Source: Dictyostelium discoideum (taxonomy: Eukaryota). Taken from it: 64,000 bases of DNA. This document shows positions 3,740 through 63,419 of this stretch, piece by piece (position 1 is the first letter of the stretch; every line of letters begins with the position of its first letter). The notes below the pieces were generated by a model. That model saw nothing but the letters and a program-made list of their open reading frames with translations. It searched no databases and was not told where the DNA came from. The translations under genes were made by a program, and so were the position numbers. The stretch is taken from the NCBI GenBank assembly GCA_000004695.1, contig CM000151.3, positions 6,912,001 through 6,976,000 of the forward strand, given 5' to 3'.

Positions 3740-6700
3740 TTATAATGATTGATTTCTTGATAAATATAATTCAATTTTAAATAATAAAGAACGTAATTTC
3801 TTTTGTTCAATTAAAGATGTACCACCATATTTTAAAGTTTCAGTTAAATCAAATAATGGAATTGGTAATTCTTTGATAGTATAATTTTGTTTTAATGAAT
3901 TCTTTAAATTTGCATAACCAATTGTACCAATTGAATTATTATCTAAAATTAGAGTAGAGATTGATTTATTTAAAATGATAGCTTTACTTAGAGCATTAGC
4001 ACCGAAATTTGAGAATTGATGATTTGAGATATCCAATTTCTTTAAACGAGTATTTAAATTTGCAGCCAATGATAATAACAAAGGTACAATACAACGTTGT
4101 AATTGTTGATTTGATTTTTGACCACCTCTCATTAACAATGTTTCCAATGATGAACTTGAATTAATGAAAGATGACAAAGCAGAGATTGCCTTACTTCTTT
4201 GAGCACCGGCACTACCTCTAAAACAACCATTTATATTTAAACTTGTAATTATTTGATTACCATATAATGAACGACAAAGTTCTTTAATACCACCATCGGT
4301 TAAATCATTATCAGAAAAATCGATTTCCTTAATTAAATTAAAAGCATTCATTGAGATCATATTTGTAATCAATGGTCTTTGAATTGAATTTTCTGATATT
4401 ATTAAATTTGAAAATAATTCATTTTTATTATTATTATTATTATTAGCACCACACAAAAATGATAAAATCTCTTTAATTGAATCTGATGGTATCATTGTTT
4501 TATTTAATGATAGGGTTAATAAATTTGGTAAATTTGATAAACAGTTTGAAAGTGATTGTGTATCCTCTTTTGAACGAAATAAATTTCTATTTAAATTTAA
4601 ATTCTCTAAACAAGATGATTGATCATTAAATTGAAAGAATTTAATTTTTAATAAAGTTTCAGATAAATCTAAATTTTTCAAAGATTTACCTTCATTAGTT
4701 AACCATTTCGATAATTCCATAGCTTGGTCATTGATTTTATTATTTGAAATATTTAAACTTGTTAAAGAATTTAAATTACCTCTTCTAAGTGAATCTATGA
4801 ATGGTTTAATATGTGATTCTTTAATTCCAATAGATTGACAATTCAAATGAATCAAACCATTGGTATTACCATATTGAAGATATGAAAAGAAAGAATTTAA
4901 TGATTTATCATCCAATTGATTATTACTAATATCTAATAAAGTCAATTTCAAAGATTTCTGTGACTGAATCGTATCGAATAATGTCATCATAAATTCCTTT
5001 GGTAATGATAAATTTGAGAGAATTAATTTATTGATTGTTGAATTTGATGATAACATTGAGCCAATTTCATTTAATAAATCTTTATTATCCAATTTATATT
5101 CTTTAATGATGAATTCTTCAAAGAACCAATCGTAACGTAATGAATGAATTAATGGTATCAATTCTTGATTGGTTGGTAGGTCACGTGTATGTTTAGTGAA
5201 AACTTTCAAATTGAATACTTTATATTTTGGATCTTTAAATGCATGTTCGATATACCAAGCTATGGTTTGTTTAATTGGTATGGAATAGTAGGAGCAAAGG
5301 CATTTGTATGCACCCACCATTGCCGAGGTTGGCGTATGGTCAGGTGGTGACATTGCCTCCAAACGAGATGATGGTTGAATCTTTAATTTCATTTTCAAAG
5401 CATATGGCCAATTGTAAAGACAATACTCATAGATACGACGAATACATGTGATGGTATGATCACATTCCTCAGTGGTTGCATGAATACGATGACCCTTGAA
5501 AATCAATTCATATTGTTGATTATTTTGTGATACAATCTCTTGTAAATCCAATATATGGCCGTCTCTTGCCAATTTACCATTCATTTTAAATGTTACAATT
5601 CTATAGATACCAACTACCAATATTCTCTTTACAAAACCTTTCTTTCCATTCTTTTGAATATAACCAATGTATGAGATTTCCTCATTCTTTGAATCCATAT
5701 AAGATTTAACAGATTTAATCTCTGATGGTGTTGTTAACAATTGATAGGATACACGATAGTTATAATCTGCTAATAAATCCATCAACTTTTCAAATTCAGA
5801 TGCTGCTTCCATAGATTGATACATTTGACGTATTGTTGATTTCTCATTACAAAGTATACGATGAAGGAAATGTAATTGGCTCATTGGAGCTTCATTGGTA
5901 TATTGATAAGATTGTGTAGAGAACCTAGCTGATAATACAGATTTAAAATATTGACTCTCTTTAAAAGTTTGTTTTATTTTTTGTTTACATTGTAACAATG
6001 ATTGATTACAATCGAATACTTCTTGATATTCATCAGATGAATAAGTTGTAATACAAGTTGACAAGTATCTTGCAAGTATTGATAAATTGGATGTTGATCT
6101 ACTATTTAAATGAATTTGCGGTGGTATCAAGTCATAGAGTTGTGGTGAAATCAATGCTGGTACAAATAATTTATTAATCAAGAAATTGGAAACACCTTGA
6201 CCACCTTGATCATCTTGTGGCCATATTTCATGGAAAAACATTGCAATCACTTTAATCGACATTGGCATTTTATCCAATGATTCTTGACTAGTGATGATCT
6301 CACTCAATCGATTACTCCACACTATTAAATTACTAAATTCATTATGAATCACCACATTCTCTGAATTCTCTAAATCATATTTAAAATTTATTGCTTTATC
6401 TTGAACTAATTGTAATACAAATTGTCTCAATACATCCTTTATATATTGTTGACATGTTTTCTCCAAATAATTTGATATTAACAATGATGAAAATGAATAA
6501 TTTCTATTAATATTATTAACATCCTCTTTAATATCTGTATATATAAAATATCTTAATATTCTTAATGCATTATTACATCCAATTGAAAATGTAATAATTA
6601 ATTTTGACATTGATTCATATTGATCTTTTTCAATAAATTTATAAAATTCATGAATTATACTAAATTATTATTATTATTATTATTATTAAAAAATTAATAT

Positions 6701-7394: not shown

Positions 7395-8610
7395 TTAACC
7401 AACAATTTCAAATTCTGAAATTGATAAAGCTAAAGATCTTTGATTCTCTAATTCTGAAGTTATTGGTTGTTCAACTATTATATTTAAATTATTATCATCA
7501 TCATTATTCTTATTACTACTAAATAATGAATCCCATTTAAAAAATGACCAATATGAACTTTTATTATTGTTATTATTATTATTACTATTTACATTTACAT
7601 TTATTATATCATTTTCATTAATAAGATACTTTGGTTGTTGTTGTAGTTGTTGTTGTTGTAGTTGCAGTTGTTGTTGCAGTTGTTGTTCGATTAATTTATT
7701 TTTTTTACCAATAAAACCACCATGTAATGATTGAAAATCGGTTAATAATTTTAAAATATTTTGATTTTTAGTTCTACTGATTGTATGTTGTGAAAAACCT
7801 TCAGTTCTATTTTGACAAAGAAATTTTACAATTTCATAATGACCATTTTCAACAGCCATTGAAATTGCATTTTTTGTACAACCCTCTGCTCTATTCTCAT
7901 GTAAAAACTTAACTACTTCTAAATGACCATATTGGGCTGACAAATCCATTGCATTAACAGTTGCACCTTCTTTTCTATTTTCATGTAAAAATTTTAAAAT
8001 CTCTAAATCACCATGACGTGCACTTAAATCAATTGATGATGTTGATGCATATCCTCTTTTATTATTATTATTATCATTGTTTTTAATTTTATTATTACTA
8101 TTTTCAATTTCATGTAAATATTTAACTTTTTCAAGGTCTCTTGAATCTACTGCATTGTCCAACACGAAAAACATTTTCTCCATTTCATCTCTTTTTAATG
8201 TGAATAATATTTTAAATAATTCACTATTATCTTTAAAACTAATCATTTTAAATATTAATCTATATGAACGAGTTGAAAAATCTAATTTAATTGTTGAATT
8301 ATTATTATTATAGTTTTTAAAAACTTTATCTTTTAATAATCCAATATTTTCACTTAAAATCATTGATTCAACAGATGTATAATCTTGATATTTCTTAAAT
8401 TGATAATTTCTATCAATGAATGTTATTTTATCTTTTTCCAAATTAATTTTATTGATTTCTTCTATTTTATTAATATTGCTTCTAGATTTCTTATTTTTAA
8501 TAGTCGATAATAAACAATTCCAATTTGAATTTTCACTTTTTAAAAATGTTGATATTATATTCCATAAATATTTATTACGAAAAACATAATAAAATAAATA
8601 ATCATTTGTA

Positions 8611-8669
<59 letters not shown>

Positions 8670-8681
8670 GATCATTGTCAT
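7395..8681 (-). CDS. Ankyrin-repeat protein with a poly-Asn N-terminus and a poly-Gln tract.
   Basis: Single 428-aa ORF. It has ANK units: DLSARHGDLEILKFLHENRKEGATVNAMDLSAQYGHLEVVKFLHENRAEGCTKNAISMAVENGHYEIVKFLCQNR. Confidence 0.75.
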
Positions 8682-23161: not shown

Positions 23162-24262
23162 ATGAAAAAATTAAAAATATTGATTTTAATTTTTAATTTA
23201 TTAATTTTATCAATAAATTGTATTCCAATAATGAATTGTAATGATTCAAAACAATGTAACAATTTAAAAAATTGTAAAAAATCTTTTATAGATATTTTCA
23301 CAAATTCACCATCACTATCATCATCATCACCATCATCATTACCACAATATATGAATAATAATAATAATTCTAATATTGGCAAAATGATAATTGACAAAGA
23401 AAAAAAAACAATAATTTTTCAAGCATCATATGATAATGAAAGTGTTTATAGAATTCTTTCAATTCCAACCAAGGGTGGTTCATCAACAATTAATAATGTT
23501 AATACAATCGCAAAATTATCAAAAAATATAACAAATAATTTTTTTATTTCATATAAAAATCAAAATGAATTTTTTATTTACTATGAAAATTGTTTAAAAA
23601 AAGTTTCCAATTTTATTTTAGATTCAAATTGTTTTTATAGTAATAATAATAATAATATTACAGATAATAATAATGATATATATTCAATTACATTTGATGA
23701 TCAAGGAATATTTGGATACTATTATTCACCAATATATTCATCAATTATTCAATACCCAACAAATAAAATTCTTTATAAAGGTGGTAATGGTACAAACCAA
23801 ATTAGAATTTTAGATAAATTAATATTTTTTAAAATTGGTCATAATATTTATTTTGGGGATTTAAATAATTTATTTATAAATTCTACAAATAATAATAATA
23901 ATATTACAAATAATTTTAATCAATCATCAATTAATAATAATAATAACATTAAAAATGTTTTACAATTACCAATTTTCTATTCAAATAAGAATATGTATGA
24001 ATTTGATATATCATCAAGTCATTTCTATTATAGTGATTGGTTTGAAAAAAGAATTTATAGATATCCAATTAGAAATGGTATAATTGATCAAACATTTAAA
24101 CAAATGATATTTTATTATCTACCAATTTCATTTCATTATTTTAATAATTATTTATATCTTTCATTTCCAAATATTTATTCAATTAATTTAAATTCAAAAA
24201 ATGTAGAATTTCAGTTAACTGACCATTTTATTCAATCAAATTATTATTGTATAGATAAATAA
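23162..24262 (+). CDS. Hypothetical Asn-rich protein of 366 aa with a signal-peptide-like N-terminus.
   Basis: MKKLKILILIFNLLILSINCIPIMNCNDSKQCNNLKNCKK.... It is a single ORF with AT-rich codon usage typical of the genome and no recognised domain. Confidence 0.5.
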   Translation: MKKLKILILIFNLLILSINCIPIMNCNDSKQCNNLKNCKKSFIDIFTNSPSLSSSSPSSLPQYMNNNNNSNIGKMIIDKEKKTIIFQASYDNESVYRILSIPTKGGSSTINNVNTIAKLSKNITNNFFISYKNQNEFFIYYENCLKKVSNFILDSNCFYSNNNNNITDNNNDIYSITFDDQGIFGYYYSPIYSSIIQYPTNKILYKGGNGTNQIRILDKLIFFKIGHNIYFGDLNNLFINSTNNNNNITNNFNQSSINNNNNIKNVLQLPIFYSNKNMYEFDISSSHFYYSDWFEKRIYRYPIRNGIIDQTFKQMIFYYLPISFHYFNNYLYLSFPNIYSINLNSKNVEFQLTDHFIQSNYYCIDK

Positions 24263-24607: not shown

Positions 24608-26022
24608 TTAATTAGTAGTTTGAGGAATTGAATTATCAACTGGAATTGAATTTTCAATTTTAGCAGAAGAATCAACTTTTGAAAGGTTTGGAGTTGAAGA
24701 TTCAACGGGTTTTTTAAAAATATAATCTGGTTTTACACAATCAGCAGGAAGATTTGGATTATGAATGAAATAGTGTGGTTTATGAATGAAATTTGGATCC
24801 TTTGCCAAATTTACTTTTGCTTTCTTTCTTTGAAGATCTTCGATTCTTTGTTTTTCAAGACCAGCCTTTCTACTATCTTTCTTTGCGAAACCCTCAGCAA
24901 CACCTTTCCAAACCTTTTGAGAAGCATTCTCTTTTAATTGTTCCATTGGTTCCTCGATGACTGGTTCAGAACGCATGGTATTGTAATTTATAAAGACACC
25001 AGATGTTTTATCTTTGAGATTAGTGATGGTAAGTATATCAACATGAGTACCATGAATATCATAGATTGGTTCGGTACCTTTGCTAACTATGATTTGAAGA
25101 TCGTGCCATTTGCCACCAATGATTGGTTTGTCCTTGAAATTGATGACTGCGCTATAGCCAGTTTCTGGACAAACAAAATTATATTTACCAGTGAATTCAA
25201 ATTTCCATCTCAAAAGACGAAGATAACCCTCTGTGAATTTATCGTTGAAATAGGTCTCGGTGACACCACCCTCTCTCTCCAATGTGATACAAGTCTTTAC
25301 ATCCATATTGACACGAATACATTTACCCTTGAATACTGGTGTGATTTGTTGTTTTGAATCAAATTTGATCTTATGTTTATCATTGTAAAAGTTAAAACAT
25401 GAAATTGGTGGATGATGTGAAATTTGTTCGGCTGTGAAATGTGTAATATCACCTTGAATCACCTCATTGGTCTTCTCATCTGTATGTTGAACTTGACATT
25501 CATAAACTTCTCCTAAAATTGGATTCAATGGATTCTTTGGGAAATACATCTTTGGCCATGTTAAATGATATTTTAAAACTTGTAAAAATCTTTGATCATC
25601 TTCTTTAATATATGGTGCACTATTTAAAATTTTAAAATTTTAAAAAATTAATATAAAATGAAAAAAATAAAAAAATAAAAAAAAATAAAAAAGTAATATA
25701 TATATATAAATTACCTTGTTAATAAATGTGAAAAAATTGCTGATTGTTGTTGAATTGCTGTTAAGAAACTAATTGGTTGTACAAATGTTGCTGGAATTGG
25801 TAATTTAGTCATATCTGCACCAACTTTAAGATGATTCTTAATGAATCCAAATGCTTGTTTCATAACACCTGCCTCTGTGGCTGGTTCAGAATCAATCATT
25901 GCATCAGCTCCACTATTTTCAGTTTGATCAACTCCTTCAGCTTCAACGCCATCACTTGAAAGATCACTAACACTATCTTCTGTTAATGGTGCTTCTTTAT
26001 TGCTTGCTACTTTTGCTGACAT
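24608..26022 (-). CDS. Oxysterol-binding protein (OSBP/ORP) family member, short form of about 440 aa in 2 exons.
   Basis: Exon 1 is 25715-26022 (MSAKVASNKEAPLTEDS...SAIFSHLLT) with donor GTAATT. The intron is 25620-25714 with acceptor AAATAG. Exon 2 is 24608-25619 (S APYIKEDDQRFLQVLKYHLTWPKMYFPK...). It has the OSBP fingerprint EQISHHPPIS. Confidence 0.85.
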
Positions 26023-28228
26023 TCTTTTTTGGTTCTTTTTTGATGATTATAAAAAAAGTTTATGGTTTTTTTTTTTTTTAAATATTAATGATTATAAAAA
26101 ATTGGTATTGATGTTTGAGAAAAAAAAAAATTATTGTTGGATTTTTTTTTTTTTTTTTTTTTTTTAGATTGTTGAGAAAATATGATACAGTGATGTTATT
26201 AAAGGTTTTTTTTTTTTGGTTTTTTTGATTTTTTTTTTTTTTTTTTTTTTGCTATAAGTTTATTCTATATTATACTATAGGTTGTAAAATATTTTTGTTA
26301 TTGCCAAAAAGAAGGAAAAAAAAAAAAAATTATTATTATAATAATAATTTTAATGTTAATATTTTATTTATTATTATTATTATTTTTTTTTTTTATCGAC
26401 TGGTGTTTTAACAAATTTAAAAAAAAAAAAAAATTGAAAAAAAAAAAAAATTTTAAAAAAAAGGTTGTATGCAAATTTTGAAAATAAAAAAAAAATTAAA
26501 AATTAAAAAAAAATTAAAAAAAAAAAAAATTTTTTGTGATTGAACGAGTGAGTGGAATAGATGATAAATATGTTGTTGTTTATATTTTATATTTACATGT
26601 ATATTTATTATATAATAAATTTAATTATATTTAAAGATATAATATATATTTTTTTTTTGTGTCTTTTAAAAATTTGAATAAGGTTTTTTTTTTTTTTTTT
26701 TTTTTTTTTACAGAATTTATTTTATTTTTTTAAAAAAAAATTATTTATATTGATATATTAATTAAAAAAAGTAAGATGATAATTATTTATAATTTTTTTT
26801 TTTTTTTTTTTATAAATAGAAAAATTATTTAAAAAAAAAAAAAAAGAAAATTATTAAAAATAAAAAAAAATTAAAAATAAAATAATTTTATTTTAAAATT
26901 AATTATTTGTGTAATATTGAAATGGTTGTTGTGTGAGTGGTGGTTTTTAATTTAATTATTATGGATAAAAAAAAAAATATTATTTGACTTTAATTTTTAA
27001 AAATTATAAAAAATAATTCTCACTATGTGGTGGAAAAATTATTTGAATTTAACATATGTTTATATGATTTTTAATAAAGGTGGTGTGAGAGAGGAATTAA
27101 TAGAAGGGGGGGTTAAGTTGGTGAATTAAAATAAAAAAAATAAAAAAAATTTAAATAAAATAAATAAATAAATAAAATATTATCTTAAAGGTTATTTTTA
27201 ATGTTTTATTGTTATTTTTTTTTTTTTTCAAAAGTGACAGTATTGGTAAATAAATTTATTTATTATTTTTTTTTTTTTTTTTTTAGTGTGAGTGTGGTTG
27301 GTAATGGAATGAATAGGTAGGATATTCTCCGATATTTATTTTGATATTTTTATTAATATCAATTTTGTAAACTATATGGTGCACACTTTATTTTTTTATT
27401 TTATTTTTAATTGAAAATGATGGTGATAACTATAAAAAAAAAAAAAAAAAAAAAGAAAAAAAAGAACAAATTTATAATAAATTGTGTTCATATAATAAAT
27501 ACGGGAGAAAAACAAATATTTATTTACTCTAAAAACTATGGGTTATAATAAATTTTATTTTTATTTTAAAAATGGTAGTAAATTTCTTTTGTTATATTTA
27601 AATATTTTAAATTTTATAAAAAAAAAAAAAAATAAAATAATAAAAAAAAAATTATTTTATACACTTTTTTTTTTTTTTAATAGAAAAAGTTAAACAAAAA
27701 AAAATAAAAATAAAAATAAAATATTTTTAATAAAAAAAAAAATAAGAGAAAAGCTATTTTTAATTTTTTTATTTTTATTTTTATTTTATTTTTTTTTTTT
27801 TTGTTTTTGTTTTTACGATGAATTATGATGTGGGGTGGTATGAGGCTTATATCTCTTTGGAAATCCAAAATACCAAAGTTTTTTTTTTTTTATTTTTTTT
27901 TTTTTATTTATTGTGCTTTTATTTTAAAGTAAATGAAAATATAATAAAACAACATAACAATAAAAGGGGTACCTTAAGTTATAACAAATTTGATATTACC
28001 AGTGAATTTATTTTTATTTTTTTATTTTTATTTTTTTTTATTTTTTTTTTTTTTTTTTATACTAGTGCGTTTTGAGTGGTTTTTTTTTTTTAATTATTTT
28101 TTTAATTATTTTATTTTATTTTTATTTTTATTTTTTTTCTTTTTTTATTTTAAAACTTTTATAATAATTATTATAAATAAACTAATTTTGACTTTTTGAT
28201 TGTGTGAAAAAAGGATTTTTTTTTTTTT

Positions 28229-30805: not shown

Positions 30806-33800
30806 ATGTCTAAGAAAGAACCTGAAGAAATAAAGAAAAATGTTACAGTTGGTAACTATGTAAGTTTATTTATTTATTATTATAATTGTTTTTTTTTATT
30901 TTTTTTTTTTTTATCATTTTTTATACATGACCCAAACCGTTATATTGATGATATTTTTATTTTTTACAACACAACAAAAAAAAAAAAAAAAAAAAAAACC
31001 AAAAAAAAAAAAAAAAAAATATTTTGAAAAACTTTTTGTTTTGAAAATAAAAATAATATAGAATTTAGGTGTTGTTATTGGTAAAGGTGGTTTTGGTACA
31101 GTATATCAAGGATTAGATATTGAAGATGGTGATTTTGTAGCAATTAAACAAATTAATCTTACAAAGATTCCAAAAGATCAATTACAAGGTATTATGAATG
31201 AAATCGATCTTTTAAAGAATCTTAATCATGCAAACATTGTAAAATATATTAAATACGTAAAGACAAAAGATAATCTTTATATTGTTTTAGAGTAAATTAT
31301 CAAATTTTTTATTTTTTATTTTTTATTTTATTTTATATCACCCAATCAATTCTAATTTTCACACATTTATTTTTAAAATAGGTATGTTGAAAATGGTTCA
31401 TTATCAGGTATTATTAAAAAGTTTGGTAAATTTCCAGAAACATTGGTTTGTGTTTATATTAGACAAGTTTTAGAAGGTTTAGTTTATCTTCATGAACAGG
31501 GTGTGGTACATAGAGATATTAAAGGTGCAAATATTTTAACAACCAAAGAGGGTAAAATTAAATTAGCAGGTAAGTTTTATTAATTTTCTATTTTATAAAC
31601 TTTTTCAAAAAAAAAGTAAAAAATAAAAAAAAAAAAAGAAATTATATTAACATTTCTTTTTTTTTATTTTTTTTATTTTTTTTTTTTTTAAATTATTTTA
31701 GATTTTGGTGTTGCAACTAAATTTGATGATACAAGTGCAGCAGCAGTAGTTGGTACACCATATTGGATGGCACCAGAGATTATAGAGTTAAATGGTGCAA
31801 CGACGAAATCAGATATTTGGAGTGTTGGATGTACAGTTATAGAGTTATTAACAGGATCACCACCATATTATGATTTAGGACAAATGCCAGCACTTTTTCG
31901 TATTGTACAAGATGATTGTCCACCATTACCTGAGGGTATTTCACCACCATTAAAGGATTGGTTAATGCAATGTTTTCAAAAGGATCCAAATTTACGTATT
32001 TCAGCACAAAAACTATTAAAACATAAATGGATTCAAGCAAGTATAAAGAAAAAACCAGTTGAAAATGGTGCAGGTGGTGTTGGAAATGGTACAGATTCAT
32101 TGGGTGCACCTGCAAACATTGATGATATAGCAAAGAATATTACAGATTACAATGAACGTATTAATAAAAAACCATCACATCAAAGAAAACCTTCAATTCA
32201 TCCAAAATCACCAAAAGGTAAAGTATTTTTACCACCACCTGAAGAAGAAGAAGATGAATGGGGTGATGATTTTAGTAATACTCCAAAATCAATTAAATTA
32301 CCTGATAAAAAATCACCATTAAAATTAACAAATAATAAACCTTCAACACCATTAAAACAACAACCAACAAATAATACACCAGTACAACAACAACAACAAC
32401 AACAACAACCACCACCACTTAAATTAGCAGTACCAAAACAACCAGTTATTGAAAATGATGATGATTGGGGTGATGATTTTAATACAGTTTCAGATTTATC
32501 AAAAGCAGTTGGTTCATTAAATTTCAATAATAATAAAAAGAATGAAACACCAAAACCAAATATAAAGAAACCAACATTTAGTGAGGATGAAGATGAAGAT
32601 GATGATGATGATGGATTTGGTAGTGGTGGTGATGATGAAGATGATGATTTTGGTGATATACCAACATCAATTAAATTAAATCCAAAATTCGGATCAAATA
32701 TAAAAGGAAATAGTAGTGGTAGTGCAAATACAACAAATTCATCATCAACTGTTGTACAACAACCAAAATTAACAGTATCTAATAATAACAATAATAATAA
32801 TAAGAAATTACCATTATCACCAAGACAACCATCATCAGGTAATGTTAAAGAGGGTATTAATCATGGTAGTACAGGTAGTAAGAGTGGTGGTGTAATTATT
32901 GATCAATGGGGAGAGGATGGTGAAGAAGATAATGATTGGGGAGATGTTGCAACAGTTAATTTTGATCCAAAAGTAATTAGAAAAGGTACAGTTAATAAAC
33001 CAGATCTTTCAACTAGATTAAAGAATAGAATTGCATTATCAGAGACAGCATTAAGTAATAGTTTTAATAATAATGGTAATGATGATGAGGATGAAGATAT
33101 TTTCGCCGATGATTTCGATGAAGATGATGATGAAGATTTCGATTTGGATAAGAATTTAATGAAGGATAACTATGCAAGAATGTCATCAGAGATTTTAAAA
33201 CTTATGAATCTATTAACACCAGAACAACCCGAAGAAGTGATCTCTAGTGCATGCACTCAATTGATTACAATGTTCAAAGAGAACTCTGAACAAAAGACCC
33301 TATTAATTCGACGTCATGGTGTTATTCCAATCATGGAGATGTTGGAGGTTTCAAATATTCAATCACATGTACTTTGCTCAATTCTAAAGGTTGTCAATCA
33401 AATTATCGATAACAATATGGAGATTCAAGAGAATCTATGTTTGGTTGGTGGTATTCCAGCGATTATGAAATTTTCAGGACCTGAATATCCAGCATCTGTT
33501 CGTTTGGAGACCGCTTCATTCATTAGTAAAATGTGTAGTACTTCAACATTGACATTGCAAATGTTTATTGCATGTAAAGGTTTACCCATTTTAGTGGACT
33601 TTTTATTATCACCATACGCCGAGAGTAAACGTTTGGTTTGGATGGCCGTCGATGCCATTGTAAATGTTTTCGAATTACAATCACCAACACCAAAGAATGA
33701 TTTTTGTCGTCTCTTTTCAAAATGTGGACTTTTAAAAACACTTCCAATCGTATTAAGAGATTCAATTGCAGATGGTGAAGCCGCTGCAACCTATCCCGAT

Positions 33801-34733
33801 AGAATCATAAATTTATTCATTATGTTTTCTGCAGCAGATTCCGTTGTTAGAAAGACAATGTCTGCCGTTGAGGTTATTCGTCCAATTTTAGATACACTCT
33901 CACAATTGATGCCAGAACAATTGGCAAAAGTATTGAAAAGTATTAAACAATTATCCATGGATCATAATACATTGGCCAATCTACAAAATGCAGGTGCCAT
34001 TCGTTTTATGGTACCATTTTTAGGTCGTCGTACTGGTGCATTTGTTGCAGAGATTCATAATCATGTTTTGAATACAATGTTCCATCTTTGTCGTATCGAT
34101 CCAGAGAGACAATATCAAGCTGCTATCGATGGTATCATACCACATCTTCAATACTTTATCACTAGTCATTCACCATTGAATCAATTTGCCTTACCAATCA
34201 TTTGTGATTTAGCTCATTCAAAGAAAGCAAGATCTGAACTTTGGAAAAATAATGGTGTCGCTTTCTATTTATCACTCTTGGAGGAACGTTATTGGCAAGT
34301 GAATGCTTTGGATTCTTTGGCAGTTTGGATCACTGATGAAACTCACAAGGTTGAGAATATCATTGCAACCAATGAAAACATAAAGAAATTGATTCAACTC
34401 TTTACCAATGCTGAATCTCAATCTTTTGCTGGTATCTTGGAGCCATTATTAAAGATTATTCAAATTTCAATACCTGTAAATATCCTCTTGGGAACTTCAA
34501 ATTTCATCACTAAAATCATCGATAAATTGGGTCATACTAATCCTCAAGTACGTTTGAACCTCTTGAAAATTATTACCTCCCTCTATGAATGTCATCCAAA
34601 TGCTAAAAAGATGATTCAAGAATTTAAACTCATTCCAATCATTCAAAAGATTGCAGATACCGATAAATCTGTTTTGGTTCAAAAAATGGCAAGCAAATTA
34701 CTTGAAGCCTTTAATGCTAATACTGTAATTTAA
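30806..34733 (+). CDS. sepA: Cdc7 (S. pombe) / Cdc15-type Ser/Thr protein kinase with a long C-terminal ARM/HEAT-like region. 1167 aa in 4 exons. Probably septase SepA.
   Basis: Exon 1 is 30806-30859 ([18 protein letters not shown]) with donor GTAAGT. Exon 2 is 31062-31291 ([33 protein letters not shown]...NLYIVL-E). Exon 3 is 31382-31569 (YVENGSLSG...[26 protein letters not shown]). Exon 4 is 31702-34733 (DFGVATKF...[12 protein letters not shown]...). Phases are 0, 2 and 1. The total is 3504 nt, or 1168 codons, which matches my memory of SepA length. The symbol confidence is lower than the call confidence. Confidence 0.8.
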
Positions 34734-36161: not shown

Positions 36162-36244
36162 TGCAAGAGGCGAGATTCGAACTCGCGAACCGAATGGATG
36201 AGATCTTAAGTCACACGGATTTAACCAGACTTTCCTACCCTTGC
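36162..36244 (-). tRNA. tRNA-Leu, anticodon UAA, a class II tRNA with a long variable arm.
   Basis: Minus strand: GCAAGGG TA GGAAAGTCTGGTTAAATCC G TGTGA CTTAAGA TCTCA TCCATTCGGTTC GCGAG TTCGAAT CTCGC CTCTTGC A. The acceptor stem is 7 bp with one G-U. The T arm is GCGAG/CTCGC with the TTCGAAT loop. The anticodon loop CTTAAGA puts TAA at positions 34-36. There is one mismatch in the anticodon stem. Confidence 0.7.
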
Positions 36245-47827: not shown

Positions 47828-48358
47828 TTAACCTAAGATTTTAATTGCTTTTTGTTGATTTTTATTATGAGTATTTGAATGTTCTAAGCCAATAAAAGTA
47901 TTTACAGCATTCCAATCAATATTAGTACCAATTGAACCATCATCTGGAATGTATTCAACTTTATCACCTCTAATGATTGAAATCTTCCATCTTGAGAATT
48001 CTTTGGAAGATAAAGATTTTGATCCACCCAATTTCGCATATAATCTTGTTCTAAGTGATTGACAAGATTCACCAGGTTTATAAAGTATTGTCATTGGTGA
48101 GCCATGGAATAATGGATAATTATGTTCTCTACTATAATGAACTACAAATACAACTCTTTCTCCATTTTTTGGATTCATCTCTTCATCTGATATCATCTCT
48201 GCTCTCAATGCTGAAGAATCACCAATTGAGCAAACATCTTCGTCTGTTAATATCTTTTCAACTCTATATCCTCTAATTTCAATAAGTCTAATTTTATTTG
48301 AATCAATTGTTTCAATATCAAAATTATTATTATTCTCTTGTTTTTGATTTTCATTATC

Positions 48359-48420
<62 letters not shown>

Positions 48421-49397
48421 GATTATTATTATTTATAACTATACCATTCGTTTGTTGTTGTTGTTGTTGTTGTTGTTGTAAATTATTATTATTATTTTGT
48501 TGTTTATAATTTAATTTAATAGTTTTTAAAAATTCATTAATTAATTCTTTAACATCACCAACTCTTAATACCCAAACTGAAATGATTTCAAATTCATTTG
48601 TAAAAGGTTTTTGCCAAGTGATTTTAAAGTTTCTTTTGATTTCACAATCTTTAACTGGAATATTTAAGATTTCAAAGTAGAGTAAATCAGTTAATTTATT
48701 TGTACTTGATAACATATCATACAATGGTATATTATCATTTGGTTTGATTGGAGAGATTGGAGCGGCCATATTTTGTTTACACATTAACCTAATGTTTTCA
48801 GAGTTTGCACCAACTAGTGTCGCAATCTTTGCAGTGATTTCAGAGTATTTCATTTGTTTTGAGAATTCACAATTGAATTGAACTTGACTATTATCTACTT
48901 GTTTAATCTTTACAACTTTTGTATTTATGATATATTGAAAGTAGTCAATGACTGTTGGTAAATTGAATTTATTTGGAGAGGCAACTTGTTTTTGAAATAC
49001 TAAAATATCACCACTTAACATTTCACACTTTGTCAATGTTTCATTTGGTTTAATTGGTTGAATATTTGATGAAGTAATCTCCTCATAGACTAACAATGGT
49101 GTATTAATTGGTAAACCTGCCAATTGACATAGTTGTGGGAAGACACTAGATGCCTTTAAACTAATATCCAATACTTTTGATCCTAAAAACTTTAAACTTT
49201 TAGTCTCTGGATCATAAAATTTAAAAAATAATAATGCACTAGTTTCATTATCCTTATCGATTTTTGGGAAAAATGAATTCATATTATCTACAATTTGATT
49301 ATTATTATTATTGTGATGGTGATGATGCTGATGCTGATTTATACCACTATTAATTTGATTTATTCCACCAGTTAAACCACTGTTAACATTATTATTA

Positions 49398-49429
<32 letters not shown>

Positions 49430-51031
49430 GTTGTTATTATTACTATTATTATTATTAATATTATTATTAGCTAAAATATAATTATTACCATTTGAAGTTG
49501 GTGCAATTAATGGTCTTGGATTAAAACAAATCTCTAAATGTAATCTTATATCGCCATTCATTCTAGCACGAATTAAATTTAAAGACGTATCATCTTGTTC
49601 TGGATACTTTTCAATTCTATGAGTTCTGTTTCTTCTAGTTGTCCAAGCCCAAATTCTTTGTCTTTCAACTGGAATACCATATTGGGCAGTAATTTGTTTC
49701 TTAAAATGACCAATACTCATATTATCATGAGTCTTTTTAAATGTTTTTGGTGGGAATCTCTCGAAATCAATTAAATCAAATGATTTATGATCAGTAAAAT
49801 CTTCATCTCTAGTAAGTCTAAGTTGAAATGTTTGTTCATTCTCTCTCATTTCATCCTTTTCAATTCTAGATTTCAAATGTTCTGGTATTTCTGTTTCATC
49901 AATTGTTCTAGTTAATTGGTCATAACAATTATTTCTAAAATAAACTAACATATCTATAGATAAATTTAAATTTTGTAAAATAATTAATAATTTATTATTT
50001 TATTAATTAATTATATAAGTGTATACATACAAGCATTATCACTTCTACCTGGTCTAATACCAAAATCAGAACCAAATGATTCATCTGAAACTCTATCAAA
50101 TGTTGATTTTGTAACTTCATCATCATCAAATTTGAACCATTCTCCATTTGATTTAATAAATGCATAATAATGACCATTATGTAAATCACCTGAATGAATT
50201 AATACACTTTTAATTTTTAATTTTTTTTTTTTATAGTTAGTTTTTATTTTATGAAAAATAAATAATAACAATATATATATATATATATATACATTACCTT
50301 TGTAAAGTATAAATATAAGAAAGTGATTTATCAGCACCTTCATCTAAATAACGATTTAAATCTAATGTATCTGGGAATTTGTATTTATCATTAATTTTAA
50401 CATTTTCATCTCTAATTGGATCATATTCAAATCTTTTCAAATGTAAATTTAAAACTGGTGGTAATGATAAAAATTTGACACCTTTGTTTGCATTCTAAAT
50501 AATAGTTTAAAAAAAAAAAAAAAAAAACAAAGTTAATAAAATAAAATAAAATAAAATAATTTAATTAAACTTACTTGTAAACCAAAACCTTCAGCGAAAT
50601 ATTGATTTGAACCATCTAGTCTTTCAGTTTCTGTATATTTATCAAATGAAGCAATTATATCTTTACAACCTTTAACATTTAAAGAAAGGTCATAAAAGTA
50701 TTCATCACTTTTTGATTCAAATGATACTTTTTCACATTTAATAAAGTTTTTGATTTTTCCACGAAATAAATCATCAACTGTACCTTCAGCTTTGGTACCC
50801 TTCATCTTATCATTTAAATTATCACACAAGACACGATTTAATTCTTGAACATCATGTTGTGTGAAAATATCCATTGTATCCCATCCAAAACTTTTCGTTA
50901 ATTCTTTAGTTCCAACTGCTTTATCTCCAAATTGTAATTTAAAAAATATTCTCTGTAATGCTAATGATATACTTTTTGTTGGATCATCTGAAATTGTTGG
51001 TAATTCATAAACTGCCTTTGGAATAATAATA

Positions 51032-55979: not shown

Positions 55980-56487
55980 ATGGAATCAATATCAGAATCA
56001 AAAACAACACCAACTACACCAACAAGTAAACATGGTCAATCATCACCATGGAAAAAAAAGAAAAAATTATTAAAACCAAGTTATTCTTCACCATCATCAC
56101 CAAAACTATCAATATCACCAAAATTATCATCATCAAATTCAAATATAACACCACCATATTATAATACACCACCACAATCACCTGGTTCAAAATTAAAATC
56201 ATTTTTTTCAAAATTAAATTCACCAAATAAACATCATAATAAAAATTTTAATAATCACAACAATAATAACAATAATAATACAACATCATCCTCCCCAACA
56301 GAAGGATCAATTACACCATCATCAAATTCATCATCAACAAATCATTCACCAGTTATAAGTAGTCCATTTGGATTCGCTCATATAACACATGTAAATTTCG
56401 ATTCATCAAACCAAGAATTAACTGTAAGTTTTTTATTATTATCATAAAAAATATATTTTTTTTTTTTTGGTTAATTAATTTATTTTC

Positions 56488-56541
<54 letters not shown>

Positions 56542-59500
56542 ATTACCAAGAGATTGGGGTAAAACATTAAAAAGATCTGTAAATAAATTAGTAACAGTAA
56601 GAAGAGATAGTACTGCACAAAGAACATCATCAATTGGTAGTGGACTTGGTGATAGCAATAATAGTAGTAATAGTAGTAATAATAATAATAGTATAGCAAA
56701 ACAAAAATCAACATCATCATCAGCATTATTACAAAAACCACAATATGAAAATAATATACAAATTAGAGAACAAGGACTACTACTACAACTACCACCACCA
56801 CCGCCACCACCACCAATTAAATCATTTGAACATGAAATTGCAAATAAATTAAGATTATCAACACCTGATGATTTAGCATTATCACTTGAGAAATCAACTA
56901 GTAATAATAAATTATCAAAGTCTTCAAATATTAGACCAAAATCATCAACTACAACAACAACCACAACAACCACCAACACAACCAATAATAATAGTGGTAA
57001 TACAACAACGACAACAACGCCACCAACAACACCAAGTAAAAAATCAACAACTAGAAAATCATCACCAACTAAATTAACAACACCAACACCAACACAATTA
57101 CAAACATCTACATCTACATCGACAATAATAAATTTAGAGAATAATAATAATAATGAAGAATTAGAAAGAAGTACATCAATTTTAAGTAGTTTAGTATCAC
57201 TTTCAAAATTAGATTCATCAAATAGTAGTAAGAGTATGGATAATTTAGTGATTGGATCACCAACATTAATTAGAAGGGATATTCATATAACGTGGAATCA
57301 TGTATCTGGTCAATTTGAAGGTGTACCAGATGAATGGCAATCAATGTTACAACCAATAACATCAGAAAAACAAAGAAAAAAGAGAATGGATTTAAGAAAG
57401 AGATTAATTCGTGAAGAATCTTTAAAATGTGATAAAGAGGAGAAATCAAGACAACAAATCCGTGATCGTAGAGAAAGATCAAGGTTATTAAGAATTGAAA
57501 GAAGAAGATCTGTTTATTTATCAAGAACAAATTCAAATAGTTTAACATCACCATCACCAACTGCAATAGCAACATCATCACCTCAACCTTTACCACCACC
57601 ATTTAAATCTTATTCATTACAAAATTTTAGATTATGGCAAATTTCAGGTACAGAATTATTTAAAACTAAAAGAGTTGAAGCATGTTTTGATTCATTATGT
57701 TGTAATGATGTTTTCGTTTTAGATTGTGGTAAAGTTATTTATGTTTGGATCGGTCAAGGTTCATCATTACAAAAGCAAGTTAAAGGTGCTTCAGTTGCAA
57801 ATAAAATTAAATATGAAAATGACTATATCAATGAACCAATTATAATTGAATTTTTAATTGATAATGAAAAATCACCTGAACATACTGAATTTTTTAGAAA
57901 TTTAACAACAACAACAACAAACTCACCATCATCAACAACAACAACATCAACCACATCAAATCAACAACAACCAATTACAATTAATAATGTTTTTACAAAT
58001 AACTTAATAATTAATGAAAAAGTTTTAAAGATTGGACAATCAGATGATCAAATACTTCAAGAAGAAGATTCAGAAGTTACATGGTTATATAGAGTTAATG
58101 ATAATGGTAAAATTAATATGATTGATGAGAAACCATTGGTACCAACACTATTGAATAGTAATACTTGTTTTATTTTAGATTGTGAAACTGATATTTACGT
58201 TTGGCATGGTAAATATTCTCATCCATTGAAACAAAAAGTTGCAGTAATATTTGCAAAAGAATTTTTAAATATCTTCTCACAAAGACCAACTTGGGCATCA
58301 TTACATATAGTTCATCAAGGTGAAGAACAGTGGTTCTTTAAAGAGCATTTCTTATATTGGTTAGAAGATGAATGTTTAATTGATAATTCTAAAAGAAATA
58401 CCCTAACTTTTAGATTAGGTACTTCTTCAAATGGTATCACTGGTAATGGTAATGGTGTCAATATAATTAATAAAGGTATAGGCAGTCATATCAATTTACC
58501 AACACCTATTCCAATTGATTCAAATTTCATGGTATCTGATTTATTCTCAATACCTGATCCATATAATACAAAACCAATTTCATTATCACCATCACCATCA
58601 ACTTCATCAATTTTAAATAATAATAGTAATAATTTTAGTGTAAATAGTAATAGTAGTAGTAGAAGTAGTATTATGTTATTAAATAATAGTAATAATGATA
58701 AAAAACAACATATTTCATTAGATATTTGGAAAGGTGAAGGTGATCAATGGAAGAAACTAACAAAAGATTTATATGGTCATTTTGAAACATCAAAATGTTA
58801 TGTTTGTCATCATGTTTATAAAATTAATGGTAAATTTCAATCAAGAGCTTACTTTTGGCAAGGATGTGAAGCATCCATTAGATGGTGGATCGTATTTCAA
58901 TTTGGTCTTTATAAAGAATTGGGTGAACATATGCAAATGTTAGATTCCTCACCACCACCAACTGAATGTTTAACTCAAAATAAAGAATCTCATGAATTTT
59001 TAAAATTATTTAATAATATTTTCATTCATTATACAACAAGATCAGAATCACATGAAACCAATAATGGCAGTGGTAATAGTATGGCACCATCATCATCATC
59101 ATTATCAATTTCTTCAATGTCTTCAATGGGTTCTGGTGTTTCATCAACTTCTTCAACGACACAACAACTTCAACAACAACAACAACAACAAAATAAACAA
59201 CATCATATTAGTATGTGTGGATTAGGTAGTAATACAAAACAAACACTTTATCAAATTACTTTAATTGCAAATACATTTACAAGATCTGTACAATTTCAAG
59301 AGTTTGATGCATCATGTTTAAATAGTAGAGATATGTTTATATTTCATTCGTTTGCTGCAAAAACTATATTCGTTTGGCATGGTAAAGGATGTAGTAAAGA
59401 GTTGAAATTAATTAGTCAAAATATTGCAAATTCAATATTGACTTATTATCAAAATACTGGTGAAATTTCAAAGAATGAAATGGATTTAGTAATTGATTGT

Positions 59501-60574
59501 CAAGAAGGTCAAGAACCACCAATATTTTGGAAACTTTTCTTATCCCTAACAAATAGTGCTGCTCAAAATGTTACAACAATGCCATTAGAACAAAAAAGAA
59601 ATTTCTATGCTTATGACCCATATTATGATCAACAACAACAACAACAACTCTCAACAATCAATAGTGTTGGTATTAGTGGTGGTGGTAGTAGTAATAATAA
59701 TAATTTAATAATTGAAAATAATAGAATACCACCAAAATTTTATCACATTTTTTATAATATTAAAGTTCGTACTTATGTTGTTACAAAGATTAGTCCATTT
59801 TGTCAAGGTGATCTTTGTGAAGAGGATTCATTCATTTTGGATTGTTTTTATAAGATATTTGTTTGGTTTGGTCCAGATTGTTCAAATAGAAAGAGGGAGA
59901 CCACTAAACAATTGGCAAAACAATATATTGAAGAATCAACCATTGGTCATTCAATTGATTCTACTAAATTGGTATTAATTGAATCTGGTGAAGAGGATGC
60001 AGAATTTAGATCATATTTTCAAGGTTGGTCCTATAATTTCATTTTAACCAATTGGAAAAATAATTCTCAATCTTTAATTGGCGCAGGTGCTGATCATAGA
60101 TTACTAAATTCAATAGTTTCCTATAGTTCAATGTCATCTCAAGTTGATAATATTGGCGGTGTTGAATCTGGTGATGAAGGTGGTGGCTATGGGTATGGTT
60201 ATGGTGGTTATGCTGATTCTAATAGCACAACAACAACAAGTTGTAATACTACAAACAATTCAACTTGTGGTACACCATTATCAAGTTCACCAATGTCTTG
60301 TTCACCTGGTTTTGGTTCATTTAATTTAGCTTCAACAATTATTAATACATCAAATGATGCTAATACTTTATCACAACCTTTAGAATCTTGGGAATTAGAA
60401 TTAGAATCAACCATTAATTCAATTAAAAAGAAACCAATCTTCTCTCCAAAACAACCTTCATCATCATCATCATCATCATCCTCTTCTTCTAATCCATCAA
60501 ATCAACATAAAATTAAAAAATATGATACAATTAAACAAATGTTAGATGAATTCGAACATACTCCAAATAATAAA

Positions 60575-60629
<55 letters not shown>

Positions 60630-61681
60630 TTAATAGTAGTAACTATGCTACCAATTTACCATCAATTACTGAAACTTCACCACCACCAACATTATCAATT
60701 TCTTTACCATCACAGTCTGATAATCAAACAATTTCAGAATTACCATCAATTTGTGATCCATTAGTAAATGAAGAATCAGAGAATAGTACTGGTAGTAGTA
60801 GTGGTAGTATTACAACAACCACCACAACAACTACAACAACTACAAATTTAAAACTACCACCACAATCACCCCCACAACTAATTGTTAATAAGAGAACATC
60901 ACAACATCAACATTTACAAGCACCTCCAAGTCCAAATCTTTCACCAGTTTTAAAGAATAGATTAATTGAACTTGCTCATGTAAATAATGCTAAACATAGA
61001 AAAAGGGGAGCTAGTGAAACAAAGAAATCAAGTCCACTCTTAAAAAGTATTTCAAAGGATAGACCATCAGCAATCGTTATCAATAATGTCACAAGAAATC
61101 ATGGTGGTTCTATAGATGCTAAATCAATGCAAGATTTAAAATTAAATAAAGTTGATATGGAATTAGATTTAGAAGTTATTAAACTTGAAAATGAATTATC
61201 TGTAATTGTTGAAAATATTCAAGATCATTCTCAAACTACTAATATTAAAACTGATAATATTATTAATAATAATAATAATTACAATAACAACAAATTAGAT
61301 ACAAATACTTCAACTACAACTACAACGACAACCGCTTTAGAAAAAATTGAGAGTAATACAAACAACAATGAAAAGATTGATGCTTCATCTGCTGTAGTTG
61401 CCAATACTGCTTGTAATAAACCAATTGAACAACAAGAAATTATTGAAGCACCTATTCAAAGAAAAATTTCAATACCAAATTTACCAATAGGTGCCAATAT
61501 AACACCAACACCAGTTCTAGTTCATACTTTATCATCACAATCAATTGCACCTCAATCACCATCGACAATTAAAAAAGTGGCATTAAAAGTTTCAGTTCCC
61601 GTAAAACCAATTGAAATTCAAAATATTGCTCTTACTACCTCAAATGCTACAATCTCTCAATCACCAAGACAATCAACTGTA

Positions 61682-61765
<84 letters not shown>

Positions 61766-62410
61766 ATAATTACACCAAGAACATCATTCCAACAACAACA
61801 ACAAAATGCTTCATTAGCAAATTCAACTACAACAGCACCAAGTGTACAGAAATTTAAAATTAATACATCAACAATTCCAACAAATAATGGATTAGTTTCA
61901 CCAAGACCTCCATTACCAACAACATCTTCTTCTTCATCATCATCATCATCATCAAGTAGTGCAACCATAAATAATGGGCTAGTTTCACCAAGACCTCCAT
62001 TACCAACATCATCATCAAATAGTTCTACTACAAACAATGGATTAACTTCACCAAGAATTATTACAACACCAAGAATTAATGGAAGTAATCCAAATGTACC
62101 AAAAAATATATCACCTTCTAAATCAAATAATGCCACTACATCCTCATCAACAACAACAACCACCTCATCACCACCACCATTACAAAGAACAAACTCTGTA
62201 AAAGATAGAATTAATCAAGTTGAAAGTATTGTAAAAAGTATATCAGAATCTACTAATAAATTACCACCAAAACCAATTCAAAGATCAGATTCTCAAATAT
62301 CATTCAAATCAACAATAAACACATCCTCAAATCCAATTCCAAAACCAACATTCGTACCTGAACCAATTACTCCAAAATGCGCGCCATCTCCAAAGGCTTT
62401 TATAAGATAA
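55980..62410 (+). CDS. Giant protein of about 2104 aa in 2 exons. It has two tandem PAK-type CRIB/PBD motifs followed by 5-6 gelsolin-like repeats and a roughly 1000-aa low-complexity, Pro-rich tail.
   Basis: Exon 1 is 55980-56423 with donor GTAAGT. The intron 56424-56539 contains T20 and A56 runs. Exon 2 is 56540-62410. CRIB 1 spans the splice: ISSPFGFAHITHVNFDSSNQELT|GLPRDWGKTL. CRIB 2 is IGSPTLIRRDIHITWNHVSGQFEGVPDEWQSML. Compare PAK: [29 protein letters not shown]. Gelsolin-like segments include FRLWQISGTELFKT..VFVLDCGKVIYVWIGQGSS, TCFILDCETDIYVWHGKYS, DMFIFHSFAAKTIFVWHGKGCS and DSFILDCFYKIFVWFGPDCS. The tail has LVSPRPPLPT twice and poly-N, poly-S and poly-T runs. Confidence 0.85.

Positions 62411-62757: not shown

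Positions 62758-63419
<662 letters not shown>

Follow-up and report, generated by a model that had tools for sequence, protein, structure and literature searches.

Does this locus encode a single protein in which GTPase-binding motifs are joined to a gelsolin core, and could such a protein link Rac directly to actin severing, as a sequence-only reading had proposed? The window, a stretch of 64,000 nucleotides from Dictyostelium discoideum, contains at 23162-24259 an ORF identical to DDB_G0276509 of strain AX4. The gene considered here fits gnrC (UniProt Q551I6), a match made by organism, chromosome region and described architecture and not residue by residue; no difference is expected, and the exact 2104-aa product was absent from the protein collection searched. 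According to a 2022 review (PMC8847673), two consecutive CRIBs at the N-terminus of a gelsolin homologue occur in Dictyostelium only in GnrC, the product of gnrC, which is uncharacterised and has no known Rac partner. The architecture is therefore already known, and the novelty claimed for it is not supported. The automatic name of Q551I6, 'non-specific ser/thr kinase', is not borne out, because Pfam finds no kinase domain in the 2104-aa protein.

Two exons (Table 1) give a spliced product without an internal stop. The first encodes a Ser/Asn/Pro-rich N-terminus, a conserved motif and the first half of CRIB1, and within the intron lie 49 nt of poly(A) (56490-56538). A single gene agrees with the frames, the splice signals and the composition of the intron, and splicing raised the Pfam PBD score of CRIB1 from 26.4 bits in read-through to 42.9 bits. 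The locus could alternatively hold two genes, one for a small CRIB protein and one for a gelsolin-related protein starting from the ATG at 57236. Indeed, the upstream ORF is able to close alone at 56447 (155 aa), and this ATG is internal to the long ORF. However, from 56540 the downstream frame stays open and is conserved, splicing makes the PBD continuous again (+16.5 bits), the orthologues carry the two halves either within a single exon or interrupted by an intron at the same position, and gnrC as published has both CRIBs at the N-terminus; we accordingly consider separate genes extremely improbable. In the genome of P. violaceum (Polysphondylium), the whole of CRIB1 lies in one exon with no intron at the splice site, and in A. 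subglobosum (Acytostelium) an annotated phase-0 intron falls at the identical codon boundary (...DLK/GISQNW). Because of these two observations, the splice inside CRIB1 is supported, and the earlier proposal that an intron splits the motif (NQELT/GLPRDW), so that the 148-aa and 1956-aa ORFs would form one gene, agrees with all of this evidence.

Table 1. Features of the gene and its product (window positions; all on the forward strand)
Feature	Position	Strand	Residues	Remarks
Exon 1	55980..56423	+	1-148	ATG at 55980; 444 nt, 148 codons; end ...NQELT; ORF and frame
Motif SPGSKLKSFFSKLNSP	56178..56225	+	67-82	Orthologue conservation
CRIB1/PBD	56355..56581, intron inside	+	126-162	ISSPFGFAHITHVNFDSSNQELT / GLPRDWGKTLKRS; Pfam 42.9 bits spliced
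Intron	56424..56539	+		116 nt; GTAAGT...AAAG; GT..AG; phase 0; 7% GC
Exon 2	56540..62410	+	149-2104	1956 aa plus stop codon
Pro8 run	56792..56815	+	233-240	Low-complexity linker between CRIBs; partly conserved in orthologues
CRIB2/PBD	57251..57370	+	386-425	IGSPTLIRRDIHITWNHVSGQFEGVPDEWQ...; divergent; Pfam PBD 32.5 bits
Arg/Lys/Glu-rich helix	57362..57520	+	423-475	Directly after CRIB2; AF2, composition, conservation
Domain a	57623..57883	+	~510-596	G2 homologue; Pfam Gelsolin 47.3 bits
Domain b	58058..58375	+	~655-760	G3 homologue; Pfam 43.9 bits; aligned to G3; AF2 fold
Domain c	58703..59038	+	~870-981	Divergent G4-type; AF2 pLDDT about 85-92
Domain d	59228..59554	+	~1045-1153	G5-type; Pfam 28.5 bits; profile-alignment position; AF2 fold
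Domain e	59726..60043	+	~1211-1316	G6 homologue; Pfam 39.2 bits; aligned to gelsolin G6 residues 621-722
Post-G6 segment NNSQSLIGAGADHRLLNSIV	60059..60118	+	1322-1341	Invariant columns; AF2 helix, low pLDDT
Low-complexity tail	60044..62407	+	1317-2104	788 aa; S 16%, N 16%, T 11%, P 9%
Conserved tail island 1	60371..60427	+	1426-1444	
Conserved tail island 2	60950..60997	+	1619-1634	
Conserved tail island 3	62174..62245	+	2027-2050	
LVSPRPPLPT, first copy	61892..61921	+	from 1933	Tail
LVSPRPPLPT, second copy	61979..62008	+	from 1962	Tail

Pfam found two PBD stretches (PF00786) in the whole protein (E = 8.7e-18), both above the gathering threshold of 21.3 bits, and the closest solved-structure sequence matches of both CRIBs were PAKs (for CRIB1, the best PDB matches were PAK CRIBs, e.g. 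1ees_B, E = 1.3e-6; for CRIB2, PAK1 1f3m_A, E = 9.5e-5). Both copies had been said to carry the extended PAK consensus. Of the two, only CRIB1 (ISSPFGFAHITHVNFD..GLPRDW) has the full core, with 11 of the 13 fixed positions; CRIB2 (IGSPTLIRRDIHITWNHVSGQFEGVPDEW) keeps eight and shows the changes Ser to Gly, Phe to Ile, first His to Arg, Val to Ile and Asp to Asn. In the alignment with PAK1, CRIB2 thus has no equivalent of His83; lacking this residue, the Phe and the Ser, it might be unable to bind any GTPase. CRIB2 is nearly invariant across all five dictyostelid sequences and is better conserved than CRIB1. Every residue of the ISxPxxFxHxxHV core is kept in CRIB1 of four of the five orthologues; the core is lost in A. 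subglobosum, and canonical CRIB1 binding is therefore not essential throughout the clade.

A conserved basic extension follows CRIB1 up to about residue 176, and the Arg/Lys/Glu-rich helix after CRIB2 (22 basic and 10 acidic of 53 residues; no Pfam match) is conserved in all orthologues and occupies the place of G1 in gelsolin. AF2 predicted a helix here, spanning model residues 45-92 and of low pLDDT; CRIB2, the helix and the post-G6 segment were placed without confidence (pLDDT below 50-57, pTM 0.38), and autoinhibition is therefore unsupported. We also considered that the CRIB-like modules, especially CRIB2 with the basic helix, are intramolecular or lipid/actin-binding elements replacing G1, in which case GnrC would be a constitutive cortical scaffold under the control of phosphorylation or phosphoinositides and not of Rac. 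The five consensus positions missing from CRIB2, the first His included, and the abundance of basic residues in the helix favor this possibility, as does the fact that conservation is strongest in the C-terminal half of each PBD and in the basic segment after it, even in A. subglobosum without the CRIB1 core. However, we judge it unlikely in view of the full CRIB1 core in most orthologues, the PBD scores of both modules and the AF2 model, in which no docking of CRIB-region segments on the core was predicted.

The gelsolin-like segments matched their profile significantly (PF00626; four stretches in the whole protein, E = 5.8e-42), and the AF2 model contains five folded domains (a to e in Table 1). 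Domain a, folded in this model, aligned to 8vkh_G over gelsolin residues 143-203 and, in the family profile, to the G2 block, and phmmer mapped the domains to gelsolin G2, G3, G4 and G6. Domain c was sub-threshold in Pfam (Gelsolin 10.8 bits, DUF7904 21.9 bits), aligned weakly to gelsolin G4 and G1 in phmmer, and carries an invariant aromatic long helix, ASIRWWIVFQFGLYKEL (the WW helix); this very divergent G4-like domain might have a partner other than actin. By hhalign, the alignment to a 42-member family profile had a probability of 100 (E = 5e-108) and began past the G1 block, and Pfam gave no gelsolin match in residues 160-390 or 415-485. As judged by phmmer, Pfam, hhalign and AF2, the gelsolin-repeat core described earlier consists of five gelsolin-homology domains equivalent to G2-G6, but G1 is absent. 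A Foldseek search with the AF2 model returned villin 9jus (best, 3e-38) and gelsolin 8viz (3e-37), and the C-terminal three domains superposed on adseverin A4-A6 (3fg6) with a target-normalised TM-score of about 0.8.

A type-2 Ca2+ site is present in every gelsolin domain (bioRxiv 10.1101/2024.09.10.612341). We scored its glutamate as the Glu at WxG+7. Counting along the phmmer alignments places gelsolin E209, E327 and E692 at this position, which is also that of E475 and E587. Depending on the domain, 33-45 of 48 relatives carry E there; the protein of the window has K560, K712, W930, L1103 and K1266, with Glu in none of its five domains, and Glu occurs at none of these positions in any of four orthologues. 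Without G1, and with this glutamate substituted in all five domains, GnrC is probably not a Ca2+-triggered severing enzyme, and the canonical Ca2+-activated severing role is unlikely from its sequence.

Severing and capping might instead be activated by Rac, if CRIB-bound Rac-GTP directly switched on a gelsolin-type severing core. Two PBD matches do lie upstream of the gelsolin domains, and the G4-type domain corresponds structurally to G1, the long helix of gelsolin G4 inserting into the barbed-end cleft; moreover, FKSY (residues 501-504), just upstream of the G2-like domain, resembles FKHV, the WH2-like motif of the gelsolin G1-G2 linker (bioRxiv 10.1101/2024.09.10.612341). However, FKSY is not conserved in the orthologue P0009 or in A. 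subglobosum, and the minimal severing unit requires G1, whereas G2G3 binds F-actin without severing it and F-actin is not bound by G4G6 on its own (Barrie et al., bioRxiv 10.1101/2024.09.10.612341). With a core that aligns to G2-G6 only and the Ca2+-site glutamate replaced throughout, Rac-activated severing seems quite improbable, and the 'Rac-to-severing' link is not upheld.

Beyond domain e, the post-G6 segment lies at the position of the gelsolin C-terminal latch helix, and it might be compared with a latch by analogy only. The disordered tail, earlier given as 1000 residues, comprises 788 aa after the last gelsolin domain and has conserved islands and a conserved K-x-F-[IV]-R at its C-terminal end. 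It matched no Pfam family, and the reported LVSPRPPLPT repeats and long Asn/Ser/Thr runs were both confirmed. A villin headpiece (PF02209), which had been suggested as a check, was detected by Pfam nowhere in the protein.

An exhaustive HMMER scan gave scores above 700 bits for just three sequences, all dictyostelid orthologue representatives, and the next match scored 167 bits. Among the next 42 matches, a Pfam scan found a PBD only in P0009 and villin headpieces in 28; the nearest non-dictyostelid relatives (P0005 and P0006) carry headpieces. Among 165 proteins compared, Balamuthia P0004 was the only one from outside the dictyostelids to share the WW long helix. These searches indicate that the CRIB-gelsolin fusion is real and rare, and found only in dictyostelids. 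Taken together, the earlier observations were partly confirmed (two CRIBs, one gene and gelsolin domains, but not a full CRIB2 consensus, a 1000-aa tail or a complete core), and so was their interpretation (one gene, profile matches and a rare fusion, but neither novelty nor severing).

We propose, with roughly even confidence, that gnrC is a two-exon gene for a 2104-aa Rac-recruited, Ca2+-independent F-actin-binding/capping scaffold, not a classical severing enzyme. In the Rac-addressed mechanism that we infer, active Rac at the cell cortex would bind CRIB1, and possibly CRIB2, so that GnrC is recruited or opened; the G2/G3-like pair would then bind actin filaments laterally, the G4-G6-like half may sit on a barbed-end subunit and cap it, and the proline-rich tail with its PxxP sites could attract SH3 or profilin-type partners. 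Such a GTPase-addressed, Ca2+-independent function in filament binding or capping would be the more likely one for GnrC.

Compared with gelsolin and adseverin, six-domain proteins with Ca2+-activated severing and capping, GnrC has the same fold and G2-G6 order, but lacks G1 and the type-2 Ca2+ glutamate in all five domains, has large low-complexity inserts between domains, and has gained an N-terminal CRIB region and the 788-aa tail. From the villin/advillin/supervillin group, which includes its best Foldseek match (villin 9jus), GnrC differs in having no headpiece, and those relatives have no CRIB module. In supervillin, a degenerate gelsolin-homology region serves as a scaffold and not as a severing engine. 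The amoebozoan 'Advillin' of Balamuthia mandrillaris (P0004; 23% identical) shares with GnrC the derived WW helix and a long Arg/Glu/Lys-rich N-terminal extension, but has retained a G1-type domain and lacks a PBD. Finally, as to the Rac/Cdc42 effectors of the PAK and WASP/N-WASP type, CRIB1 matches the CRIB and following beta-hairpin segment of PAK, whereas CRIB2 departs from PAK1 at His83 and GnrC has no kinase domain, WH1 or VCA, its output domain being the gelsolin-type core. By analogy with PAK and WASP, GTPase binding to GnrC could act through relief of autoinhibition or membrane recruitment.

The window is very AT-rich (GC 14–33%), and the frame opened by the ATG at 55980 runs for 148 codons to ...NQELT, where it meets GTAAGT. 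The same reading resumes at 56540 with GLPRDW and stays open for 1956 codons up to the stop codon at 62408-62410, which gives a spliced product of 2104 aa. The intervening intron is 116 nt long, has a GC content of 7% and ends in an unbroken poly(A) run of 49 nt that directly abuts the AG acceptor. Frames and splice signals bear out the coordinates, ORF lengths and intron of the sequence-only reading, which had also joined the two ORFs into one gene. Upon splicing, the Pfam PBD score of the first CRIB (CRIB1) rises from 26.4 to 42.9 bits. The cross-species comparison is stronger evidence than this gain: in the orthologue of Polysphondylium violaceum (P0002, locus L001), ISRPFALSHVTHINFDPNSRELQGLPNDWGKTLKK lies within one exon, and in that of Acytostelium subglobosum (P0003, locus L002), a phase-0 intron is annotated at the exact homologous boundary, between ...SSSDLK and GISQNW. 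Because the score gain and both gene structures point the same way, the assignment of the two ORFs to a single gene is well supported, and the alternative of two separate genes is very unlikely. The homologous JGI contigs L003 and L004 are intronless; since they are ~80% identical to P. violaceum DNA, they come from another species, and their missing intron could reflect genomic absence rather than a cDNA origin.

One ORF in the window encodes exactly the hypothetical protein DDB_G0276509 of D. discoideum AX4, which lies on a contig of 8.48 Mb, and the ORF next to it is part of oxysterol-binding protein 6, as judged from its cluster. The two assign the window to chromosome-scale D. discoideum DNA. 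The published gnrC (Q551I6) was described as a novel gelsolin-related protein, the sole Dictyostelium protein in which two CRIBs follow each other at the N-terminus, uncharacterised and without a known Rac partner (PMC8847673, a 2022 review); it is also among listed actin-organisation genes (PMC7888446). Because the D. discoideum product analyzed here combines two consecutive N-terminal CRIBs with gelsolin repeats, as in the published description, and has DDB_G0276509 as a neighbour, we identified the gene as gnrC. The spliced 2104-aa product had no exact counterpart in the protein collection, and no D. discoideum entry was among the matches of the homology searches, which comprised word-indexed searches with four matches each and an exhaustive one. 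The architecture is genuine, but it is already known from the literature as gnrC; a CRIB-containing gelsolin-related protein was reportedly already listed by Vlahou and Rivero in 2006.

Q551I6 also bears the name 'non-specific ser/thr kinase' (PMC8847673 supplement). In a Pfam search of all 2104 aa, Pkinase had no match at E ≤ 1. Since the kinase domain C-terminal to the PBD is absent, GnrC is not a PAK; the kinase name is not supported and looks as if an automatic rule had transferred it on account of the PBD match.

The features of the window are collected in the table below. The kinase-domain ORF has only the C-terminal half of that domain and therefore should have an upstream exon. For the Cys-rich ORF convergent with the gnrC 3' end, no Pfam match was obtained, and it is absent as such from the protein collection; it may form the final exon of an adjacent gene. 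The strongest GC skew of the window falls in a stretch of 14% GC, inside which no tandem repeat array was reported.

Features of the window, with positions in nucleotides
Feature	Position	Strand	Basis or remark
Large ORF, MORN repeats	714-2186	-	Pfam
Large ORF, RasGAP	3740-6610	-	Pfam
Large ORF, ankyrin repeats	7395-8681	-	Pfam
ORF identical to DDB_G0276509	23162-24262	+	Coding to 24259
ORF, part of oxysterol-binding protein 6	24608-25549	-	
GC skew +0.52	26001-28000		
Large ORF, protein-kinase domain (C-terminal half) and ARM region	31767-34733	+	Pfam
tRNA-Leu gene (anticodon UAA)	36162-36244	-	Sole tRNA of the window
Large ORF, USP7-type C-terminal domains	47828-49951	-	Pfam
gnrC	55980-62410	+	
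Unbroken poly(A) run in gnrC intron	56490-56538		
(AAT)n array	60566-60628		18-residue poly-Asn run of GnrC tail
(AAT)n array	61682-61763		27-residue poly-Asn run of GnrC tail
Cys-rich 91-aa ORF	62758-63033	-	
(AAT)n array, ~60 copies	63069-63246		Downstream of gnrC, in the next gene or intergenic region

Both CRIBs pass the Pfam cut-off for PBD (PF00786, gathering score 21.3 bits), CRIB1 with 42.9 bits and CRIB2 with 32.5 bits, and PAK CRIBs are the nearest sequence matches of both among solved structures. CRIB1 (aa 126-162, ISSPFGFAHITHV) has every fixed position of ISxPxxFxHxxHV, whereas the CRIB2 core (IGSPTLIRRDIHI) departs from it by Ser to Gly, Phe to Ile, first His to Arg and Val to Ile. 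Just past the core, CRIB2 (aa 386-425, IGSPTLIRRDIHITWNHVSGQFEGVPDEW) carries Asn for Asp, and its C-terminal GxFxGxPxxW part is retained. The extended consensus proposed for both copies therefore holds at the CRIB1 core and fails for CRIB2. The CRIB2 substitutions are fixed in all orthologues, and CRIB2 together with the following Arg/Lys/Glu-rich helix (aa 423-475) is nearly invariant across all five dictyostelid sequences. The CRIB1 core is kept in P. violaceum and in two further dictyostelid orthologues (P0001 and P0009) and is gone in A. subglobosum, where the intron still sits at its place within the former CRIB1 (L002, 3001-3471) but the ISxPxxFxHxxHV core is lost. In that species no PBD match for CRIB1 was obtained, and a check of all frames of the locus revealed no core motif, so that a core overlooked in another frame was rejected; the basic segment downstream of the former CRIB1 and a fully conserved CRIB2 are still present. 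To judge from these patterns, CRIB1 and CRIB2 are not equivalent. In PAK1, GTPase binding is lost on mutation of either of two His residues; one of them, His83, is the counterpart of the first core His, where CRIB2 has Arg. The CRIB-like modules might instead be non-GTPase elements, a reading that we regard as unlikely.

Piecewise Pfam searches and an AlphaFold2 (AF2) model revealed five tandem gelsolin-type domains in GnrC, where at least three define membership of the gelsolin/villin superfamily. Four of them pass the PF00626 cut-off (47.3, 43.9, 28.5 and 39.2 bits); the divergent G4-type domain scores 10.8 bits with PF00626 and 21.9 bits with DUF7904, which all 42 scanned relatives match, but AF2 gives it a gelsolin fold. 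The model, built on a 9-sequence alignment, contains five separate folded domains (pLDDT ~65-90); its pTM of 0.38 makes the inter-domain geometry unreliable, and it has no confident inter-domain or CRIB-core contacts. In Foldseek searches, the model retrieved villin and gelsolin at E values of ~1e-37 to 1e-38, and its last three domains superpose on adseverin/gelsolin G4-G6 with a target-normalised TM-score of ~0.8.

By phmmer, the first domain aligned with the RLFQVKG...FILDLG segment of gelsolin (G2), the second with G3, the third, weakly, with G4 and the last with G6. The hhalign alignment to the 42-member family profile (probability 100, E = 5e-108) starts at the G2 block and leaves the ~190-column G1 block unmatched. 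On these alignments, the domain order is G2, G3, G4, G5, G6, and the N-terminal G1, the high-affinity actin-binding domain that severing requires, is absent. In piecewise Pfam searches, neither the stretch that separates the two CRIBs nor the one from CRIB2 to the first domain gave a gelsolin-like match; with neither Pfam nor profile signal, a cryptic G1 at these places was rejected. The C-terminal headpiece that marks the villin subfamily (PF02209), raised in the sequence-only reading, gave no match (E ≤ 1) with either the whole protein or tail pieces, and a headpiece concealed in the tail was likewise rejected.

A type-2 Ca2+ site in each domain consists of an Asp before the core strand and a Glu in the long helix. 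The helix Glu lies seven residues past the Gly of the WxG motif and corresponds to gelsolin E209, E327 and E692, as counted in the phmmer alignments; for the remaining domains we take it to be E475 and E587. In the alignment, 33-45 of 48 relatives, depending on the domain, have Glu at this position. GnrC instead has K560, K712, W930, L1103 and K1266, and the position is non-Glu in all five domains of all four orthologues. The partner Asp, read from the sequence against gelsolin alignments and the family consensus, remains in three domains (D538, D1079 and D1244) and is lost in two (T690 and K899). As the helix Glu is replaced in all five domains and the Asp is left in only three, canonical Ca2+ switching of the core is very unlikely.

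The last gelsolin domain is followed by an invariant segment, NNSQSLIGAGADHRLLNSIV. The tail, of 788 aa, is rich in Ser, Asn, Thr and Pro, without a Pfam family match; three islands within it and its K-x-F-[IV]-R end are conserved. Both copies of LVSPRPPLPT noticed in the sequence-only reading were found in it. Two of the (AAT)n arrays in the table encode poly-Asn runs of this tail.

Gelsolin-family proteins are textbook Ca2+/PIP2-regulated actin severers; through a member wired directly to Rac, GTPase signals would reach the ends or sides of filaments by an unusually direct route. The sequence-only reading had proposed such a link from Rac to severing. According to Barrie, Rebowski & Dominguez (bioRxiv 2024), the minimal severing unit requires G1, G2G3 binds filament sides without severing, G4G6 alone does not bind F-actin, and the barbed-end cleft can be occupied by the G4 long helix. 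The proposal is weakened by the absence of G1 and by the replacement of the Ca2+ glutamates in five domains, and a true Rac-activated severing protein, for which the CRIBs would speak, appears quite improbable. We infer instead, with evenly balanced confidence, that GnrC might be a Rac-addressed, Ca2+-independent filament-binding, possibly capping, scaffold: the CRIB region would tether the protein to active Rac at the cortex, and the proline-rich disordered tail would recruit partners. Beyond this scaffold, it is conceivable, if doubtful, that dictyostelids lost the Ca2+ switch and G1 and acquired tandem CRIBs instead, such that Rac-GTP, in place of Ca2+, would directly gate filament binding or capping by G2-G6; if true, this rewiring would be the first direct link of a small GTPase to the gelsolin fold.

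The original observation was mostly correct. Since annotation and reviews already cover the gene together with its domain architecture, the finding itself is not new and would not surprise a Dictyostelium specialist. What is added here is the missing G1, the replacement of the type-2 Ca2+ Glu in all five domains, a CRIB2 that is non-canonical yet the most conserved module, the conserved intron position and the apparent restriction of the fusion to dictyostelids. The losses of G1 and of the Ca2+ sites are useful pointers for the design of experiments on the unstudied GnrC.

The contiguous segment aa 380-1345 was compared exhaustively, by HMMER, with 1.84 billion cluster representatives; it retrieved three orthologue representatives (P. 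violaceum, the EukProt dictyostelid P0009 and A. subglobosum), which scored 703-1124 bits, and the next match scored 167 bits. Among the next 42 matches scanned with Pfam, a PBD was found in P0009 only, and a loose CRIB pattern matched only orthologues among 165 proteins, ~150 of which were gelsolin-family matches. On the basis of these three results, the CRIB-gelsolin fusion appears to be confined to Dictyostelia. A six-domain amoebozoan ancestor, whose G1 was later replaced, would be consistent with the features of the Balamuthia mandrillaris 'advillin': like GnrC, this protein has an unusual WW helix in its G4-type domain, and unlike GnrC, it has kept G1 and has no CRIB.
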